A DNA stretch of 62,341 nucleotides, the filler included, from Caldilineae bacterium (lineage in GTDB: Bacteria; Chloroflexota; Anaerolineae; DTLA01): the NCBI GenBank assembly GCA_037446815.1. It is 11 parts of 11 records of this genome, joined end to end, with 100 filler letters (N's around TTAATTAATTAA, not from the genome) between each part and the next. Parts side by side here need not be neighbours in the genome. Positions count along the whole stretch, not along the records: positions 23,171 to 28,778 come from JBBIHX010000184.1; 10 more parts are not named here. The stretch is one strand, 5' to 3'. Numbering within the stretch: position 1 is the stretch's first letter; the number at the start of each line of letters is the position of its first letter. The notes under the pieces were generated by a model. It made no database searches. It was given only the letters and a program-made list of their open reading frames with translations, and was not told the origin of the DNA. The translations under genes were made by a program, and so were the position numbers. Below, in pieces: positions 5,716-41,681 of this stretch.

Positions 5716-5815
5716 NNNNNNNNNNNNNNNNNNNNNNNNNNNNNNNNNNNNNNNNNNNNTTAATTAATTAANNNNNNNNNNNNNNNNNNNNNNNNNNNNN
5801 NNNNNNNNNNNNNNN
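5716..5815. other. artificial contig linker N44-TTAATTAATTAA-N44
   Basis: The same linker occurs at 11529-11628, 17334-17433, 23071-23170, 28779-28878, 34424-34523, 40051-40150, 45674-45773, 51259-51358 and 56813-56912; contig lengths fall monotonically from 5713 to 5454. Confidence 0.98.
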
Positions 5816-15807: not shown

Positions 15808-15907
15808 NNNNNNNNNNNNNNNNNNNNNNNNNNNNNNNNNNNNNNNNNNNNNNNNNNNNNNNNNNNNNNNNNNNNNNNNNNNNNNNNNNNNNNNNNNNNN
15901 NNNNNNN
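15808..15907. other. 100-N scaffold gap, probably an unmerged overlap
   Basis: TCGTAGAGCGAATTG lies immediately before and immediately after the gap. Confidence 0.7.
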
Positions 15908-23070: not shown

Positions 23071-23263
23071 NNNNNNNNNNNNNNNNNNNNNNNNNNNNNN
23101 NNNNNNNNNNNNNNTTAATTAATTAANNNNNNNNNNNNNNNNNNNNNNNNNNNNNNNNNNNNNNNNNNNNTTTGGAACCGAGTCCGCGACCGCTCCCCCT
23201 AGACAAAACGCAAATCTTATGCTATACTGTGCCTGCCCGATTACCAGAGCGCGGGGTAGGCCC

Positions 23264-23683
23264 ATGATGACGAAGTGGCTCGTGGTTGTCTTGCTGGGTG
23301 CGGCTCCCTGGGGCGGCATCTGGTTCCCATCCACAACGGGCTTGGCAATGGGGCTGGGCCTTCCGGCGGCCATCGGTCTGTCCACCGCCGGGCAGTTCGG
23401 GGGCGTGCTGGCGATCCTCAAGGCCTGCGCCGCCGCGGAAAAGCGCCCCGAACTGGTGCGCCATCTGGCGCGCGTGCGCACCGAGCGCGTCCACTACTTC
23501 CTGCACCGATACGGCGTGCTCGGCATTCCCCTGGCCGTCGTGGTGCTCGGAGCCTACGCGGTAACGGCGGGGCTGGCCGCCCTGGGCATGAGCCACAGGC
23601 GCATCCTCATCTCCGTCTCGGTGTCGCTGGCGCTCATGGCGATCGGTCTGTATGTCCTCATCGCCCTGGCGCCGCTGGGATAG
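23264..23683 (+). CDS. small multidrug-export-like membrane protein
   Basis: LLGAAPWGG.. and RYGVLG motifs, about 4 TM helices. Confidence 0.6.
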   Translation: MMTKWLVVVLLGAAPWGGIWFPSTTGLAMGLGLPAAIGLSTAGQFGGVLAILKACAAAEKRPELVRHLARVRTERVHYFLHRYGVLGIPLAVVVLGAYAVTAGLAALGMSHRRILISVSVSLALMAIGLYVLIALAPLG

Positions 23684-23690
23684 CGACCTC

Positions 23691-24545
23691 TCATCCCTCG
23701 CGTGAAGCGCCGCATGCCCGGCGAGGCGCGTTCCGCATGCGTTCGTAGTGGAACAAGTACTGTTGCGCATACCCCGCGTAAGGCCCTAGCCATGCCCGCG
23801 CAAACTCCGCCGTCTGGCGGTACGACCGAAGCCCGGCCCCGCGCCGCGCCAGGATGCGCTTCATCCACACGTCCACCGGCACCGCTTGCAGGTGGCCCAG
23901 CGCAAACAGGCACACGCAATCGGCTACCTTCGGCCCCACGCCCGGCAGGGCCTGCAAGCGCGCGTGGGCGGCCTCGTAGTCCAGCGACGCCAGCGCGTCC
24001 AGGTCAAACCGCCCCGAATCCACCATCCGCGCCGTCCCGACAACGTAAGCCGCCCTGTAGCCCAGGCCCAGCGCGCGCAGATCACCCTCGGACAGCGCCG
24101 CCAGCACCGACGCGCGCGGCAGGGCGTAGAAGCCATCGGCGACGTGCTCGCCGAAGCGAGCCGCCATCGCCCCAAGCATCTTGTCAATGCGCGGGATGTT
24201 GGCGTTCGTCGCGCAGACAAACGACAGCACCGCGTCCCACAACTCGTAGCGCACCAGCCGCATCCCTCGGTACGTCGCCACTGCCTCGCGCAGCGCGGAC
24301 TCGTCGGGGAACGTCGCGTAGATGGCATCCAGCGGGTCGTCCAGGCGGAAGTAGGCGGCGACGGTCTCCGGCGGGAGCGAGGTCTCGCAGGCCAGCGCGT
24401 CGCCCTGCTGCCAGACGCGCACCAGCGCGCCGCCGATGACGCCCCGCCACGCGCCGCCGGGTTCCGCCCGCCACAGGAACGACTGTCCACACCGAAGGGT
24501 TTCGTCTAGGTTGATTCCGCCGGAAGCGGGAAGGATGTAGGGCAT
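23691..24545 (-). CDS. 8-oxoguanine DNA glycosylase (OGG1-like, HhH-GPD)
   Basis: LDETLRCGQSF, NANIPRI, GLGYRA, LPGVGPKVADC, VPVDVW, AGYAQQYLF. Confidence 0.92.
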   Translation of the reverse strand: MPYILPASGGINLDETLRCGQSFLWRAEPGGAWRGVIGGALVRVWQQGDALACETSLPPETVAAYFRLDDPLDAIYATFPDESALREAVATYRGMRLVRYELWDAVLSFVCATNANIPRIDKMLGAMAARFGEHVADGFYALPRASVLAALSEGDLRALGLGYRAAYVVGTARMVDSGRFDLDALASLDYEAAHARLQALPGVGPKVADCVCLFALGHLQAVPVDVWMKRILARRGAGLRSYRQTAEFARAWLGPYAGYAQQYLFHYERMRNAPRRACGASREG

Positions 24546-24739
24546 TCTCCAGACCTCACATGGCGTTGCACCGCGGAGGACATTATGGGATGTTGCCACG
24601 CCGCGCAGGGGCAGTGAAACCCAATTCACCGCTGAGACGCGGAGACCGCAGAGAACATTCGGATTATTCTTCCCCTCTCTGCGTCCTCTGTGCCTCTCTC
24701 TGCGGTGAAATCCCCTCCCACCGCGGAGACGCAAATGAT

Positions 24740-24768
24740 TTGCCCGGAAACCCCTTTGCCCGTATAAT
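24740..24768 (+). promoter_or_regulatory. tadA promoter, predicting a leaderless mRNA
   Basis: TTGCCC-17-TATAAT; GTG start 7 nt downstream; no SD. Confidence 0.65.
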
Positions 24769-24775
24769 AACCCTA

Positions 24776-25237
24776 GTGAGCGACGACGAACGGTACATGC
24801 GCGAGGCCCTGCAACAGGCGCTTCTCGCCCTTGAGAAGGGCGAGGTGCCGGTGGGCGCGGTGGCGGTGCGCGACGGGGTCATCATCGCGCGCGGGCATAA
24901 CCTGCGCGAGACCCGCCGCGACCCAACCGCCCACGCAGAGATGATCGCGCTGCAACAGGCGAGCCGCGTGCTGGGCGGCTGGCGACTCCTCGGCGTTACG
25001 CTGTACTGCACGCTGGAGCCGTGCGCCATGTGCGCCGCCGCGATGGTACATGCGCGGTTGCCGCGCCTGGTCTACGGCGCGCCCGACCCCAAGGCGGGAG
25101 CCGCCGGCTCGGTGCTCAACCTGACCGCGTCGCCGGCGCTCAACCATCGGGTGGAAGTGATGGGCGGCGTCCTCGCCGAGGAAGCCGCGGCGATTCTCGC
25201 CCGCTTCTTCGCCCGATTGCGTTTCACAACCGAATAG
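24776..25237 (+). CDS. tadA: tRNA adenosine(34) deaminase
   Basis: GEVPVGAV, DPTAHAE, TLEPCAMC, DPKAGAAGS. Confidence 0.95.
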   Translation: MSDDERYMREALQQALLALEKGEVPVGAVAVRDGVIIARGHNLRETRRDPTAHAEMIALQQASRVLGGWRLLGVTLYCTLEPCAMCAAAMVHARLPRLVYGAPDPKAGAAGSVLNLTASPALNHRVEVMGGVLAEEAAAILARFFARLRFTTE

Positions 25238-25247
25238 TCTGGTACGC

Positions 25248-25334
25248 GGAGGGATAGCATAGTCCGGCCGAATGCGCGCGTCTCGAAAACGCGTGGGCAG
25301 AAATGCCCCGTGGGTTCAAATCCCACTCCCTCCG
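25248..25334 (+). tRNA. tRNA-Ser(CGA)
   Basis: Acceptor stem GGAGGGA/TCCCTCC, anticodon arm CGCGT-CTCGAAA-ACGCG, long variable arm, GGTTCAAATCC, discriminator G; CCA not encoded. Confidence 0.95.
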
Positions 25335-25374
25335 CCTCTTCTTGCCCAGCGATGGGGCAGACGCAAGACCCGCC

Positions 25375-26277
25375 CTACTCCTCGGTCTTGGCCGCCTTCT
25401 CCGCGTGGCCGACAAACGGCTCCAAGAGTTTCGTGAACTCCATCGGCAGGATGAACTTGGTGGCCGGGCTGGCCCCCAGGCTCCGCAGCGTGTCCAGGTA
25501 CTGAAGGCTCATGGTCTTGCTGTCCACGCCCTTCGCCACGCTGAACACCTTGTCCAGCGCCAGCGAGAACCCCTCGGCGCGGAGGATGGCCGCCTGGCGT
25601 TCGCCTTCGGCCTGGAGGATGGCCGACTGCTTGGCGCCCTCGGCGCGCAGGATGGCCGCCTGCTTCTCGCCCTCGGCCACCTTGACGGCCGACTCGCGCT
25701 TGCCGTCGGCCTCGGTTACCATAGCGCGGCGCTCGCGCTCGGCGGCCATCTGGCGGTTCATGGCGGTCTGAACCTCGCGCGGCGGCTCAATCTCCCGAAT
25801 CTCCACCGTCGTTACCTTGACGCCCCAGCGCTCGGTTACCTCGTCCAGTTTCACGCGCAGGATGTGATTGATCTCCTCGCGTCGCGCCAGCACGTCGTCC
25901 AGCAGGATGTCGCCGATGACCGCGCGCAGGGTCGTCGTGGCGATACCCGCCGACGCGCCGGCGAAATCCCGCACCTGGAGCACGCTCAACGTCGGGTTGA
26001 TGACCTTCCAGTAGATGAGGAAGTCAATGGAGATGGGCGCATTGTCCTTGGTGATGCACGTCTGGTGGGGAATCGGCAGGTACGATTCGCGCAAGTCCAC
26101 CCTGGTGGGCTGGTCTATGATGGGGATGAGCAGGACGAGCCCCGGCCCCTTCTCGCCGATGCAACGGCCCAGACGGAACACCACAAGCCGCTCGTAGTCG
26201 CGCACGATCTTGATGGCCGACGCCAGCAAGATGATGATGAACACAAGCACCAGGAAAGCGAACACGATGGTTTCCAC
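25375..26277 (-). CDS. SPFH/band 7 domain protein
   Basis: N-terminal TM, VVFRLGR, ITKDNA, TTLRAVIG, QMAAERERRA, AEG repeats. Confidence 0.93.
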   Translation of the reverse strand: METIVFAFLVLVFIIILLASAIKIVRDYERLVVFRLGRCIGEKGPGLVLLIPIIDQPTRVDLRESYLPIPHQTCITKDNAPISIDFLIYWKVINPTLSVLQVRDFAGASAGIATTTLRAVIGDILLDDVLARREEINHILRVKLDEVTERWGVKVTTVEIREIEPPREVQTAMNRQMAAERERRAMVTEADGKRESAVKVAEGEKQAAILRAEGAKQSAILQAEGERQAAILRAEGFSLALDKVFSVAKGVDSKTMSLQYLDTLRSLGASPATKFILPMEFTKLLEPFVGHAEKAAKTEE

Positions 26278-26328
26278 TTTTGCATCCCTCCCAGAGATGG
26301 TGTGGTGTGAGGGTCGCTTGCCGCGCCC

Positions 26329-27075
26329 TCAACGGGTTTGTTTGGCCGCACGCGCGCGGGCAGCCTCCCACTCGCTGTAGAGACAGCCGCAGTAGTGTTG
26401 CTTGTACAGGCCGTATTCGTTGGCCATGCGGCCCCGCTCGGACCAACCGCGCCGAAAATCCTCGTAGAAGAACGGCACGCCGACGGCCGCGCCCACCTCC
26501 TCCCCGATGTTCCGTATCGCCTCCTGATCCTGATGAATGCTGATGAGCAGCGTCGTCGTGAAGGCGTCAAACCCGCCGTCGCGGGCAGCGCGCGCCGTCT
26601 GCTCCAGCCGCATTCGGTAGCAGATGCGGCAGCGTTCGCGGAACGCCTCGTGCCCCGCGACCTGGCGGAAGAACAGCGGCATATCGTAGTCCTCGTGCCA
26701 GATGACGGGCAGGCCCACCCGCTCCACGTACCCGCGCAGGGTCTCGCGCCGCATCTCGTGCTCGGCGAACGGGTGGATGTTCGGATTGTACCAGTAGCCT
26801 GTAACCGCGAACCCCAAATCCCGCAGGCGCTGGATGGTGTACGTCCCGCACGGCCCACAGCAGATGTGCAACAGTATGCGTTTGCCCTCGCCGGGGCGTT
26901 GGGGCTGGGGGCGCTCCTCGCGGGCGGGCAGTTGGACGACGCGGGCGAGGCGGATGGTAAACGGGTCGCGGCTCACCTCAACCGCCTGACCCTCTTGCAG
27001 TAACTTGAGGGCCTTCTTCTCGGACGTGAGGGAGACCCGCTTCCCCTCCGCGTCCAGGACGATGACTTTGTCCAT
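26329..27075 (-). CDS. queH: epoxyqueuosine reductase QueH with an N-terminal PLMP/RRXRR-like domain
   Basis: LLHICCGPC, YNPNIHP, RCRICY..RL, FTTTL, LYKQHYCGCLYS; about 60-aa N-terminal extension. Confidence 0.88.
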   Translation of the reverse strand: MDKVIVLDAEGKRVSLTSEKKALKLLQEGQAVEVSRDPFTIRLARVVQLPAREERPQPQRPGEGKRILLHICCGPCGTYTIQRLRDLGFAVTGYWYNPNIHPFAEHEMRRETLRGYVERVGLPVIWHEDYDMPLFFRQVAGHEAFRERCRICYRMRLEQTARAARDGGFDAFTTTLLISIHQDQEAIRNIGEEVGAAVGVPFFYEDFRRGWSERGRMANEYGLYKQHYCGCLYSEWEAARARAAKQTR

Positions 27076-28100
27076 CAGAACAACCCCGGCTGCTGCGCCG
27101 TGTCGGCGGGGTACGGGATGCCGAGGTGCTCGTAGGCGCGGCGCGTGGCCACCCGCCCCCGTGAAGTGCGCTCCAGGAAGCCCAGTTGCAGCAGGTACGG
27201 CTCGTACACGTCCATGATGGTGTCCGGCTCTTCGCTGATGGACGCCGCGATGGTATCCAGCCCCACCGGCCCCCCGCCGAACTTCTCAATGATGGTGCGG
27301 ATGACCCGTCGGTCCACCTCGTCCAGGCCCAGGTCATCCACATCCAGCAGGCTCAGCGCCTCGCGGGCCACGTCCAGCGTGATGGCTCCCTGGGCGCGCA
27401 CGTCGGCGAAATCGCGCACGCGGCGCAGCAATCGGTTCGCCACGCGGGGCGTCCCGCGGGAGCGGCGGGCGATCTCCCGCGCGCCCTCGGGACTGAGCCG
27501 CACGCCCAGGATGGCAGCGGAGCGGGTAACGATCTGCTCCATCGCGGCCAGGTCGTAGAAGTCCAGCCGGTACACCACGCCGAACCGCCCGCGCAACGGC
27601 GAGGTCATGAGCGCCAGGCGGGTCGTGGCGCCCACGACAGTGAAGCGAGGGAGTTTCAGTCGCACGCTGCGGGCCGACGGGCCTTTGCCGATGATGATGT
27701 CCAGGGCGAAGTCCTCCATCGCGGGGTACAGGACCTCCTCCACAGCCTTGCCCAGGCGGTGAATCTCGTCAATGAAGAGCACATCGCCCTTGCTCATGTT
27801 CGTCAGGATGGAGGCGAGGTCGCCCGGGCGCTCTATGGCGGGGCCGGAGGTGATCTTCAGATTCGTGCCCATCTCATTGGCGATGATGTGCGCGAGGGTC
27901 GTCTTGCCCAGGCCGGGCGGGCCATAGAACAGGACGTGATCCAGCGGCTCGCCGCGCGCTTTGGCCGCCTCCAGGAAGATGCGCAGGTTCTCCTTCAGCC
28001 GCTCCTGGCCGATGTATTCCGACAGGCGTTTGGGCCGCAGGTCGGCGTCCACGGTGCGGTCTTGGGCCTGCGGCTTGCCCGACGTGATGCGCTCACGCAT
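27075..28100 (-). CDS. ruvB: Holliday junction branch migration helicase RuvB
   Basis: [49 protein letters not shown]. Confidence 0.99.
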
Positions 28101-28339
28101 GCCTTCGCTCCTCGCTGATAAGTGACCCCATTATAGCAGAAGGTTCCCTCAAGGTGAAACAGGCGCAAGATGGAGCAAAGGAGAGCAAGTAATTGTTTTG
28201 GAGAGAACACGCGTGGCAAATGTTGTCAAACTGCTGTGATTCGGTTACAATTGCCTTCGCTGCCGATAGACCCGATTGACCCGCCTTGCGAAAGATGCTA
28301 TAAGTATGCACACCTCGCCGCCAGGAAAGGAGTTTGGAT

Positions 28340-28711
28340 ATGACCCATGTACGGGTGAATGTGCAGGAGATTCGCCAAAGACTGCAGCAAGAGCGCGAGG
28401 AAACGCTGACCAATATCGCCCGCCTCCAGGAGGGGATGACCTACGACCTGGAAACGTCCCCCGAGGAAGGCGACCCGGATATTTGGGAGCGCGAGAAGAT
28501 CGCCTCCCTGATTCGCAGCCTGGAAAACAAACTGTCGGAGATAGACCGCGCGCTCCGCATGACGGAGCGGGGCGACTATGGCCTGTGCGAACGGTGCGGC
28601 CAGCCCATTGACCCCGCCCGCCTGAAGGTGATGCCCACCGCCACCCTGTGTCTGAAGTGCAAGCAGGAACTGGAGCGGCAGGCCGCGGCCCGCATCCCGC
28701 CGCGCGAATAG
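28340..28711 (+). CDS. TraR/DksA C4 zinc finger protein
   Basis: IDRAL..GDYGLCERCGQPIDPARL..PTATLCLKC; upstream TTGACC-17-TATAAG at 28276-28304. Confidence 0.92.
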   Translation: MTHVRVNVQEIRQRLQQEREETLTNIARLQEGMTYDLETSPEEGDPDIWEREKIASLIRSLENKLSEIDRALRMTERGDYGLCERCGQPIDPARLKVMPTATLCLKCKQELERQAAARIPPRE

Positions 28712-28910
28712 GCCGCCGCCGTGCTGCGGATTCGGTTCCAAAGTCTGTTGGTATTTGTCATTGCGAGGGCGCGGAGCGNNNNNNNNNNNNNNNNNNNNNN
28801 NNNNNNNNNNNNNNNNNNNNNNTTAATTAATTAANNNNNNNNNNNNNNNNNNNNNNNNNNNNNNNNNNNNNNNNNNNNACGTCTCAGACCTGTCCCTACG
28901 CGGTTGGTTT

Positions 28911-28946
28911 TTCCGCCACAATCAGCCGCACGATGCCCCAGGCCCA
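28911..28946. repeat. 36-bp direct repeat of the methyltransferase 3' end (other copy 29859-29894)
   Basis: TTCCGCCACAATCAGCCGCACGATGCCCCAGGCCCA is identical in both places. Confidence 0.9.
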
Positions 28947-28972
28947 GAGGCCCTGGAACGAGTTTGCGCCCA

Positions 28973-29122
28973 GATTCGGTTCCAAAGTCTGTTGGCATTT
29001 GTCATTGCGAGGGCGCGGAGCGCCCGAAGCAATCTCTGGGGCGTGAGGTTGCTTCGCTTCGCTCGCAACGACACACGAGGAGAGTGTCCTTGCGTTTCAC
29101 CAACACAAGATGAAACCGACTC
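28973..29122. mobile_element. complete MITE with an 8-bp TSD
   Basis: TIRs GATTCGGTTCCA/TGAAACCGACTC; TGCGCCCA at 28965-28972 and 29123-29130. Confidence 0.88.
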
Positions 29123-29137
29123 TGCGCCCAACAGCGT

Positions 29138-29166
29138 TTGACCTGCGCAAGCCCCTGCGCTATACT
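29138..29166 (+). promoter_or_regulatory. promoter of the TA operon
   Basis: TTGACC-17-TATACT. Confidence 0.65.
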
Positions 29167-29203
29167 TTCGGTAGGCCCGTGTGAATCCGTGGGGGTAAGG
29201 ACC

Positions 29204-29503
29204 ATGTCCCGCGATGACGTGGAGCACATTCTGGCGAAACTGCGAGCCTTGAAGCCGGAAATCGCGGCGCGGTATCGGGTCCGCGAACTCGGCGTCTTTG
29301 GCTCGTTCTCGCGGGGCGAGCAGGGAGAAGCCAGCGATATTGATCTTCTCGTGGACTTTGAAGAGGGCGCCGATCTGCTGGACCTGGTGGGACTTGCCCA
29401 GTTCCTGGAAGAGCAGTTCCACAGGCCGATAGATGTTGTCCCCAAGCGTGCGCTGCGGGCGGAAATACGCAAGGCGGTCCTTGAAGAGGTCGTGCCCCTA
29501 TGA
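29204..29503 (+). CDS. MNT minimal nucleotidyltransferase antitoxin
   Basis: FGSFSRGEQGEASDIDLLV (GSX10DXD), IDVV. Confidence 0.93.
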   Translation: MSRDDVEHILAKLRALKPEIAARYRVRELGVFGSFSRGEQGEASDIDLLVDFEEGADLLDLVGLAQFLEEQFHRPIDVVPKRALRAEIRKAVLEEVVPL

Positions 29504-29838
29504 GAGACCATCGGCTCTACATCAAGGACATCCTCGCCGCGATGGAGAGCATAGAGGCCTTCACCGAAGGAATGACGTTGAAAGCGTTCCAAGCCGACGA
29601 CAAGACCGCCAGCGCCGTCATGAGAAAACTGGAGATTATCGGCGAGGCCGCCAAACAGGTGCCCGACGAGGTGCGGGCAGCCTACCCCGACATCCCCTGG
29701 AAGGAGATGGCGGGAATGAGGGACAGGCTCATCCACTCCTACTTTGGCGTGGACTACAGACTGGTATGGGCAACCGTGAAGAAGCGCCTGCCGCAGGTCA
29801 AGCCCCACATCCAGAGGATGCTACGAGACTTGCCCTGA
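29500..29838 (+). CDS. HepT-like HEPN (DUF86) ribonuclease toxin
   Basis: LEIIGEAAK, IPWKEMAGMRDRLIHSYFGVD (RX4HXY); 4-nt overlap with the MNT gene. Confidence 0.93.
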   Translation: MRDHRLYIKDILAAMESIEAFTEGMTLKAFQADDKTASAVMRKLEIIGEAAKQVPDEVRAAYPDIPWKEMAGMRDRLIHSYFGVDYRLVWATVKKRLPQVKPHIQRMLRDLP

Positions 29839-41489: not shown

Positions 41490-41681
41490 GCAGGGGCAGG
41501 TCGTAGGGGCAGGTCGTAGGGGCAGGTCNNNNNNNNNNNNNNNNNNNNNNNNNNNNNNNNNNNNNNNNNNNNNNNNNNNNNNNNNNNNNNNNNNNNNNNN
41601 NNNNNNNNNNNNNNNNNNNNNNNNNNNNAGGGGCAGGTCGTAGGGGCAGGTCGTAGGGGCAGGTCTCAGACCTGCCCCTAC
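41490..41681 (+). repeat. 13-bp tandem array of a GTAG-REP left arm ending in a full REP
   Basis: (GTAGGGGCAGGTC)n across a 100-N gap, ending GTAGGGGCAGGTCTCAGACCTGCCCCTAC; related REP end at 28879-28899. Confidence 0.85.

Follow-up and report, generated by a model that had tools for sequence, protein, structure and literature searches.

The window analysed here, a 62,341-nt stretch of DNA from Caldilineae bacterium (GCA_037446815.1), contains a queH gene that encodes an enzyme with an additional N-terminal domain, and this domain is homologous to the PLMP (RRXRR) domain of IscB and IsrB. QueH is the epoxyqueuosine reductase that completes the synthesis of queuosine on tRNA. Both queH and the ruvB gene directly upstream of it are located within positions 23,171-28,778 of the window (JBBIHX010000184.1); the adjoining parts of the window need not be neighbours in the genome. 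On the minus strand queH occupies 26329..27075, i.e., 248 codons and a stop, and a single reading frame runs through three parts of the protein. The first is the PLMP-type domain (residues 4-48, 26932..27066), recognised by Pfam RRXRR, NCBIfam guided_IscB, AlphaFold2 (AF2) models and the structure searches Foldseek and VIA-align. The second is a linker rich in proline and glutamate (residues 44-65, 26881..26946), which is the least conserved part of the protein (mean pairwise identity 48%, relative to 62% for the N-domain and 72% for the catalytic domain) and the part modelled with the lowest confidence (predicted local distance difference test (pLDDT) blocks 84 and 60). The third is the QueH catalytic domain (residues 66-248, 26332..26880), identified by Pfam QueH, by a profile and fold match to PDB 7lc5 and by invariant columns. 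The ruvB gene (27075..28100, also minus strand) overlaps queH by one base, as the sequence TGATG on the minus strand holds both the ruvB stop codon TGA (27077-27075) and the queH ATG (27075-27073).

The catalytic domain looks fully functional, judged from its sequence and its predicted structure. The Pfam QueH family PF02677 (formerly DUF208) matches residues 67-235 over positions 1-173 of 175 with 206.2 bits, far above the cut-off of 23.5. The seven cysteines C72, C73, C76, C149, C152, C229, and C231, which presumably act as ligands of the Fe-S cluster and the metal site, are invariant in an alignment of 121 family members and present in the window protein. QueH of Thermotoga maritima (PDB 7lc5) is found with a profile E of 1.4e-45, and the predicted model aligns to it in Foldseek with E 2.2e-16, a template modelling (TM) score of 0.86 on the target and a root mean square deviation (rmsd) of 2.5 A over 180 columns. 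The pathway context agrees with this: in five related genomes carrying the fusion, QueA and TGT were found in all five, and three of these genomes have queA on the contig and strand of queH, at a distance of 0.05 to 1.9 kb past the match to QueH. No match to QueG-DUF1730 was found in any of the five, which are metagenome-assembled genomes (MAGs) and possibly incomplete.

The T. maritima enzyme (PDB 7lc5/7lc7/9deu) has the same catalytic domain, which in the window protein comprises residues 66-248. The solved protein of 192 aa begins at the catalytic domain, without a PLMP-type domain or linker, and aligns from family-profile position 67 onward only. Residues 1-65 (nt 26881-27075), which precede the catalytic domain, are therefore an addition to canonical QueH. 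This extension is in frame in all 121 aligned family members. Within it A22 and P38 do not vary in the alignment, and conservation is at least 90% for V6, L7, D8, G11, S15, K21, L25, G29, A31, I41, and L43. The extension is thus translated and constrained, and the true start of queH is not located downstream of it. Relative to the nearest genome (L001) the N-domain differs by 7 synonymous and 8 nonsynonymous codons and the catalytic domain by 44 and 20, respectively; the N-domain is thus under constraint as well, to a lesser degree than the enzyme domain. The N-terminal extension and Pro-rich linker that had been claimed for this QueH are accordingly borne out by the open reading frame (ORF), the profile matches and the structural model.

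Sequence profiles and the predicted fold both show that the extension is truly homologous to the PLMP domain of IscB/IsrB. Residues 4-48 correspond to positions 1-45 of 174 in the Pfam model RRXRR (PF14239), which describes the N-terminus of IscB. The match scores 26.9 bits when the whole protein is used and 30.7 bits with the 64-aa N-terminal piece alone, and both values are above the curated cut-off of 25 bits. The same stretch matches positions 1-45 of NCBIfam guided_IscB (NF040563) with E 3.6e-7. A profile built from the 121 family sequences matched the N-termini of 8 distinct solved IscB sequences in the PDB (E 1.9e-5 to 1.4e-3), and no PDB entry besides IscB was matched by the N-domain region of the profile. 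A profile-profile comparison was made with hhalign, where the 121 QueH N-domains were aligned to 30 PLMP domains of IscB taken from Chloroflexota genomes; this gave 99.1% probability and E 5.8e-19 over 44 of 45 columns. A family profile was needed here because single-sequence searches of the PDB are weak: phmmer with the 64-aa N-terminus reached only E ~1, with an engineered IscB ranked second. An exhaustive single-sequence search of 1.84 billion representatives revealed no further architectures; it gave nine matches, of which six were QueH fusions or their fragments with a QueH match, one was a 62-aa RRXRR-only fragment and one an IscB-like 73-aa fragment; P0126 and P0130 from this search were discarded as repeat-protein false positives. 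A word-indexed search with residues 1-64 returned only 4 close relatives among 16 candidates, and in the ESM Atlas, searched with residues 1-50 and skipping QueH clusters, the best matches (0.87-0.88; lead threshold 0.9) were short RRXRR fragments.

The predicted fold points in the same direction. In the AF2 model the N-domain consists of strand 4-7, strand 13-17, helix 19-27, strand 31-36, and strand 39-43, with a pLDDT of 86-95 if modelled as part of the whole protein and 82-87 if folded alone. This predicted topology agrees with the PLMP domain of DtIsrB, which is described as a four-stranded antiparallel sheet with a helix in PMC9581776. When the domain-only model was searched with Foldseek against 350,542 PDB chains, ranks 1-9 were all IscB or IsrB (E 2.5e-3 to 4.4e-2, rmsd 0.6-2.1 A, 41-47 columns, 29-42% identity). 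An independent, exhaustive VIA-align search of 48,161 representative chains likewise placed IscB/IsrB in all of the top five positions (Z 5.0-7.0), with the first unrelated chain at Z 3.6. The absolute structure scores are modest because the domain is small, and it is the agreement of four methods that carries the claim of homology. The central claim of the original prediction, an IscB-like PLMP domain fused to QueH, is hence confirmed by Pfam, NCBIfam, hhalign and the structure searches alike, including superposition of the AF2 model on known PLMP domains. It could be argued that the resemblance is due to chance, or that the extension is an untranslated or mis-called leader, as the single-sequence phmmer search is so weak and the window copy has neither of the two prolines of the PLMP motif. 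This explanation is refuted by two curated profile libraries, by the profile-profile alignment, by two structure searches and by the in-frame members, and it retains practically no probability.

The similarity extends over the core residues V-x-V-L-D, L-x-P, K/R-A-R-x-L-L, G-K-A, and P-F-T-I-x-L, which are common to the QueH N-domains and the PLMP domains of IscB/IsrB (OgeuIscB 7utn/7xht/8csz, TbaIscB 9k30, HfmIscB 9k2z, DtIsrB 8dmb), with which the fold is also shared. The PLMP motif itself is not retained. As had been predicted, the window protein has lost both prolines and reads V-S-L-T at this position. The QueH-family consensus is x-L-S-P (L 79%, S 92%, P 78%), relative to P 87%, L 97%, M 30%, and P 93% in the 30 IscB domains; neither the methionine nor the first proline of PLMP is conserved in the QueH family. 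Unlike in IscB and IsrB, the domain is not followed by RuvC, bridge helix, HNH or TI domains, and QueH takes their place.

The fusion is a family trait that is conserved across much of the class. A search for full-length homologues gave 2372 proteins at E <= 1e-10. Among the best 120 of these, the N-domain was in frame in all, and 116 had precomputed matches to both PF14239 and PF02677. Those of the 120 that are named by their sources are from Anaerolineae/Chloroflexota and carry the names 'epoxyqueuosine reductase QueH', 'AANH superfamily ATPase', or 'hypothetical'. In a sample of 300 genomes of the class, QueH was found in 83 and an RRXRR match limited to the N-terminal part (profile positions 1-59) in 54, and a cross-check of the tables showed that in every one of the 54 this match is immediately followed by a QueH match, with contig and strand in common. 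The distribution of the fusion, which the original prediction asked to be checked, is broad within the class. The 29 remaining QueH loci of the class include 20 that were inspected, of which 18 were without the domain, one had a divergent copy (43.7 bits to the family hidden Markov model (HMM)) and one a truncated remnant. The domain was found in 11 of 80 species-representative loci fetched by QueH motifs, and all 11 are Anaerolineae/Chloroflexota MAGs; the QueH genes of Dehalococcoidia, Bacillota, Thermodesulfobacteriota and others start 5-20 residues before the first cysteine motif. At one locus (L144, G058:C2) an upstream stop precedes a QueH frame that opens in the middle of the N-domain and retains only family-HMM positions 27-48 (20 bits). 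The domain may have been caught here in the course of being lost, or the assembly may be in error.

The position of queH behind ruvB is also conserved. ruvB is found directly upstream of queH in most of the fetched loci (L001-L096), with or without the N-domain, and the phyla that have this adjacency include Chloroflexota, Bacillota, Thermodesulfobacteriota, Verrucomicrobiota and Zixibacteria. Because the adjacency occurs in several phyla, in fused and unfused loci, the coupling of ruvB and queH is older than the fusion and independent of it. The coupling that had been predicted thus holds as far as the stop and start codons share one base, and it is nothing special to the fusion. It is relevant in this context that the PLMP domain of IsrB contacts a terminal hairpin that contains a Shine-Dalgarno sequence and lies just upstream of its own ORF, according to PMC9581776. 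By analogy the QueH N-domain could have a regulatory role in which it binds the ribosome or, at the ruvB-queH junction, the mRNA that encodes it. The overlap of the queH start with the ruvB stop would suit such a role, and so would the observation that the next-best fold matches are entries of the N-terminal domain of initiation factor 3 (IF3-N) on 30S complexes. On the other hand, loci that lack the domain have a ruvB-queH junction that is just as tight, and a tRNA was the only structured RNA family found in positions 25000-29000. A regulatory role is consequently considered very unlikely.

The phylogeny of the catalytic domain places all 44 fused rows in one Chloroflexota QueH clade (Shimodaira-Hasegawa-like approximate likelihood ratio test (SH-aLRT) 98), the sister of which consists of 13 plain Chloroflexota rows. 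When 20 further members of the class were included, plain forms were scattered inside the fused clade; backbone support was poor in this tree, and the starred branches force 2 changes only. The simplest reading, on these sequences, would be one gain of the domain followed by several losses. In the tree of the domain itself, which is unrooted and was made from 45 columns of 41 QueH N-domains and 30 PLMP domains of IscB, the QueH N-domains form one side of one branch (support 100/93). Closest to them are L114, L123 and L088, three IscBs from a minor subclade that have RRXRR-type frames. HNH is present in L114, for L088 it is encoded in a separate adjacent frame, and the frame of L123 runs off the contig end. 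The homology to IscB stops where RuvC-I of IscB begins, and the joining of an IscB-like 5' end to queH fits because of this coincidence with the PLMP/RuvC-I boundary. Most likely, queH was fused a single time, precisely at this boundary, to the 5' end of an IscB-like gene, and would then have been inherited vertically in its fused form, with secondary loss of the domain in several sublineages. A single capture in the direction from the IscB-like gene to queH is the probable course of events, and is held with reasonable though far from full confidence. No RRXRR match besides the fusion was found in any of five fusion genomes, so that there is no resident IscB donor in these.

The trees do not settle this direction of transfer, as the PLMP tree is unrooted and the attempt to root it with IF3-N was unsuccessful. 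The opposite origin must hence be considered, i.e., that the QueH N-domain is a surviving cellular member of an IF3-N-like lineage from which IscB/IsrB took PLMP, or that both derive from a lost free-standing domain. Kinship between PLMP and IF3-N has been proposed by Hirano et al. (2022; PMC9581776). IF3-N has the same small alpha/beta topology and provides the next structural matches after IscB/IsrB, and these matches are weak (Foldseek E 0.09-0.2 and TM ~0.43; VIA Z 2.8-2.9). Pfam IF3_N (PF05198) gave no match in the window protein at E up to 10. In support of the opposite origin, the QueH N-domains and IscB each form one side of one branch in the unrooted tree, so that either could be ancestral, and in hhalign the QueH N-domains align to IF3-N over more columns (33 columns in the structurally expected register, 22% probability) than IscB does (19 columns, 5.9%), with both values insignificant. 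An IF3-N outgroup of five sequences furthermore attached inside the QueH N-domains, beside the window's own subclade without prolines (starred support 97/93). This rooting was discarded, since the C-terminal end is visibly misaligned and the subclade in question is nested deep in the catalytic-domain tree; for the same reasons the attachment is probably due to long-branch attraction or convergence. IscB-type proteins are widespread outside Chloroflexota, and within the phylum full-length IscB-type matches were found in 25 of 401 sampled genomes (2 of 300 for the genomes of the class). The QueH N-domain, for its part, was seen in one clade of one phylum only. An origin from a cellular IF3-N-like lineage, or from a lost common ancestor, thus appears improbable. 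If true, such host-to-transposon transfer or common descent would make PLMP a module that is autonomous and portable and that has its own function beyond RNA-guided nucleases.

The explanation that is considered best overall, and only slightly more probable than its alternatives together, is that the protein is a predicted working epoxyqueuosine reductase that has acquired a PLMP-homologous N-domain of ~45 residues on a proline-rich linker of ~20 residues, and that this N-domain serves as an accessory module for holding tRNA. The tethered module would help the enzyme to hold its tRNA substrates through sequence-independent contacts to an RNA helix, and it would improve the enzyme without being needed for catalysis. 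Such a role would be in keeping with PLMP in IscB and IsrB, which contacts terminal omega-RNA hairpins mainly in a sequence-independent manner according to PMC9640706 and PMC9581776.

There are at least four points that weigh against a tRNA-holding role. First, the QueH N-domains have a net charge of +0.38 (sd 1.69, n=121), relative to +5.77 (sd 1.56, n=30) for PLMP domains of IscB, i.e., ~5 units lower, and contain 5.5 lysines and arginines relative to 8.5. Second, the arginine pair before the P-F-T-I strand is replaced by Ser-Glu in the QueH family (R80/R73 vs S75/E75). Third, the N-domain is dispensable, as QueH of T. maritima and all non-Anaerolineae loci examined are without it and plain forms are scattered through the fused clade. 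Fourth, a role in protein contact fits the ancestry equally well, because PLMP also packs against the RuvC and TI domains in IscB/IsrB, as described in PMC9640706 and PMC9581776. Because most of the positive charge is lost and the domain has been lost repeatedly, the specific proposal that the N-domain is a tethered module for holding tRNA is put forward tentatively and given slightly less than an even chance. The original inference of a domesticated OMEGA-system module reused for tRNA recognition is thereby supported in part, with the homology and the fusion to a complete QueH established and the reuse and its direction proposed.

The main rival is that the N-domain is a protein-contact module, which docks on the QueH catalytic domain or recruits an electron donor or another enzyme of the queuosine pathway and in doing so would reuse the PLMP surface that packs against RuvC and TI. 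The loss of most of the PLMP positive charge speaks for this role, and the QueH family has gained conserved positions of its own (G at alignment position 8 in 96%, S12 in 92%, Y42 in 91%, and V44 in 96% of the sequences). The higher pLDDT of the N-domain in the full-length model than in the domain-only model is also in agreement with contact to the remainder of the protein. However, the linker, which is long, rich in proline and of low conservation, looks more like a tether than a fixed dock, and both the partner and the interface are hypothetical. A protein-contact role is therefore thought to be rather unlikely, while it deserves more consideration than any other alternative to tRNA holding.

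Accessory RNA-binding domains are found on other tRNA-modifying enzymes. In ThiI (PDB 2c5s), a THUMP domain is combined with a PP-loop/AANH-like core, and a fold search with the QueH catalytic domain also brought up 2c5s. The two enzymes are thus similar in having a small accessory domain appended to such a core; the accessory domains are unrelated, and binding of tRNA by the QueH N-domain is inferred only. A PLMP-like domain in front of a different catalytic domain is also seen in two proteins of 169 aa (L135, G397:C124; L136, G493:C346), where RRXRR positions 1-43 and 1-40, respectively, are matched with ~23 bits and are followed by HNH without RuvC. These resemble the 'IshB' proteins of the OMEGA literature. 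The partner in these proteins is the HNH nuclease domain from the IscB repertoire, whereas QueH is a housekeeping tRNA-modification enzyme. Other RRXRR contexts were observed as well. A 263-aa frame at 528-1316 on the minus strand of its contig (L134, G401:C102) matches RRXRR positions 3-54 (23.3 bits), followed by ~200 alanine-rich residues without a Pfam match, and could be a degenerate IscB or another non-nuclease context of PLMP. In two frames of ~267 aa (L137, G650:C38; L138, G660:C61) the C-terminal part of IscB follows immediately on an IscB-type PLMP domain, and these look like IscB copies with an internal deletion.

The surroundings of queH in the window are those of an ordinary cellular locus. 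Neither an adjacent omega (HEARO-type) RNA nor an IS200/IS605 context was found, and an Rfam scan of the 62-kb window gave one tRNA only. The region from ~15.3 to 39.9 kb was scanned for genes and contains ordinary cellular genes, among them a MiaB-like radical-SAM protein, an SPFH protein, a DksA-type zinc-finger protein, an aspartate/ornithine carbamoyltransferase-family gene and glnA; the scanned neighbours on both sides of queH are not transposon or nuclease genes, and this region gave no transposon gene and no omega/HEARO RNA. An ORF for a tadA-like tRNA adenosine deaminase (24560-25234, plus strand) is followed just after its end by the tRNA gene (25248-25334, plus strand; 55 bits in Rfam), and both lie ~1 kb from queH on the opposite strand. 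An ORF for an MNT-type nucleotidyltransferase overlaps one for a HepT-like RNase at 29138-29838 (plus strand), and the two make up a typical toxin-antitoxin pair. Stretches of N are dispersed between positions 5716 and 56912 and amount to 1080 N in 22 runs, namely ten pairs of 44-N runs that are 12 bases apart and recur every 5.55-5.8 kb, and two 100-N runs at 15808-15907 and 41529-41628. On both sides of the N pair at 28779-28878 a near-identical peptide is found in the ORF translations, which suggests a repeated element next to this N stretch.

Both the enzyme and the domain are known, and it is their combination and context that were not found described. No paper was found that treats QueH or queuosine together with PLMP, RRXRR or PF14239, in a literature search that covered neither the primary QueH papers nor Altae-Tran et al. 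(2021). Automatic Pfam annotation does show the architecture, and the public names are simply QueH or hypothetical. PLMP is described as unique to IscB and IsrB in PMC9581776. In these proteins the role of PLMP cannot easily be told apart from that of the RuvC/TI scaffold against which it packs, while here the domain stands alone on a flexible linker before an unrelated housekeeping enzyme, and the QueH fusion may thus be regarded as a natural experiment on what PLMP is able to do alone. It is also a probable case of a host enzyme that took over a piece of a transposon-encoded RNA-guided nuclease. For the Anaerolineae that carry it, the fusion defines a subtype of QueH whose handling of its substrate may differ from that of the T. 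maritima enzyme that has been studied.

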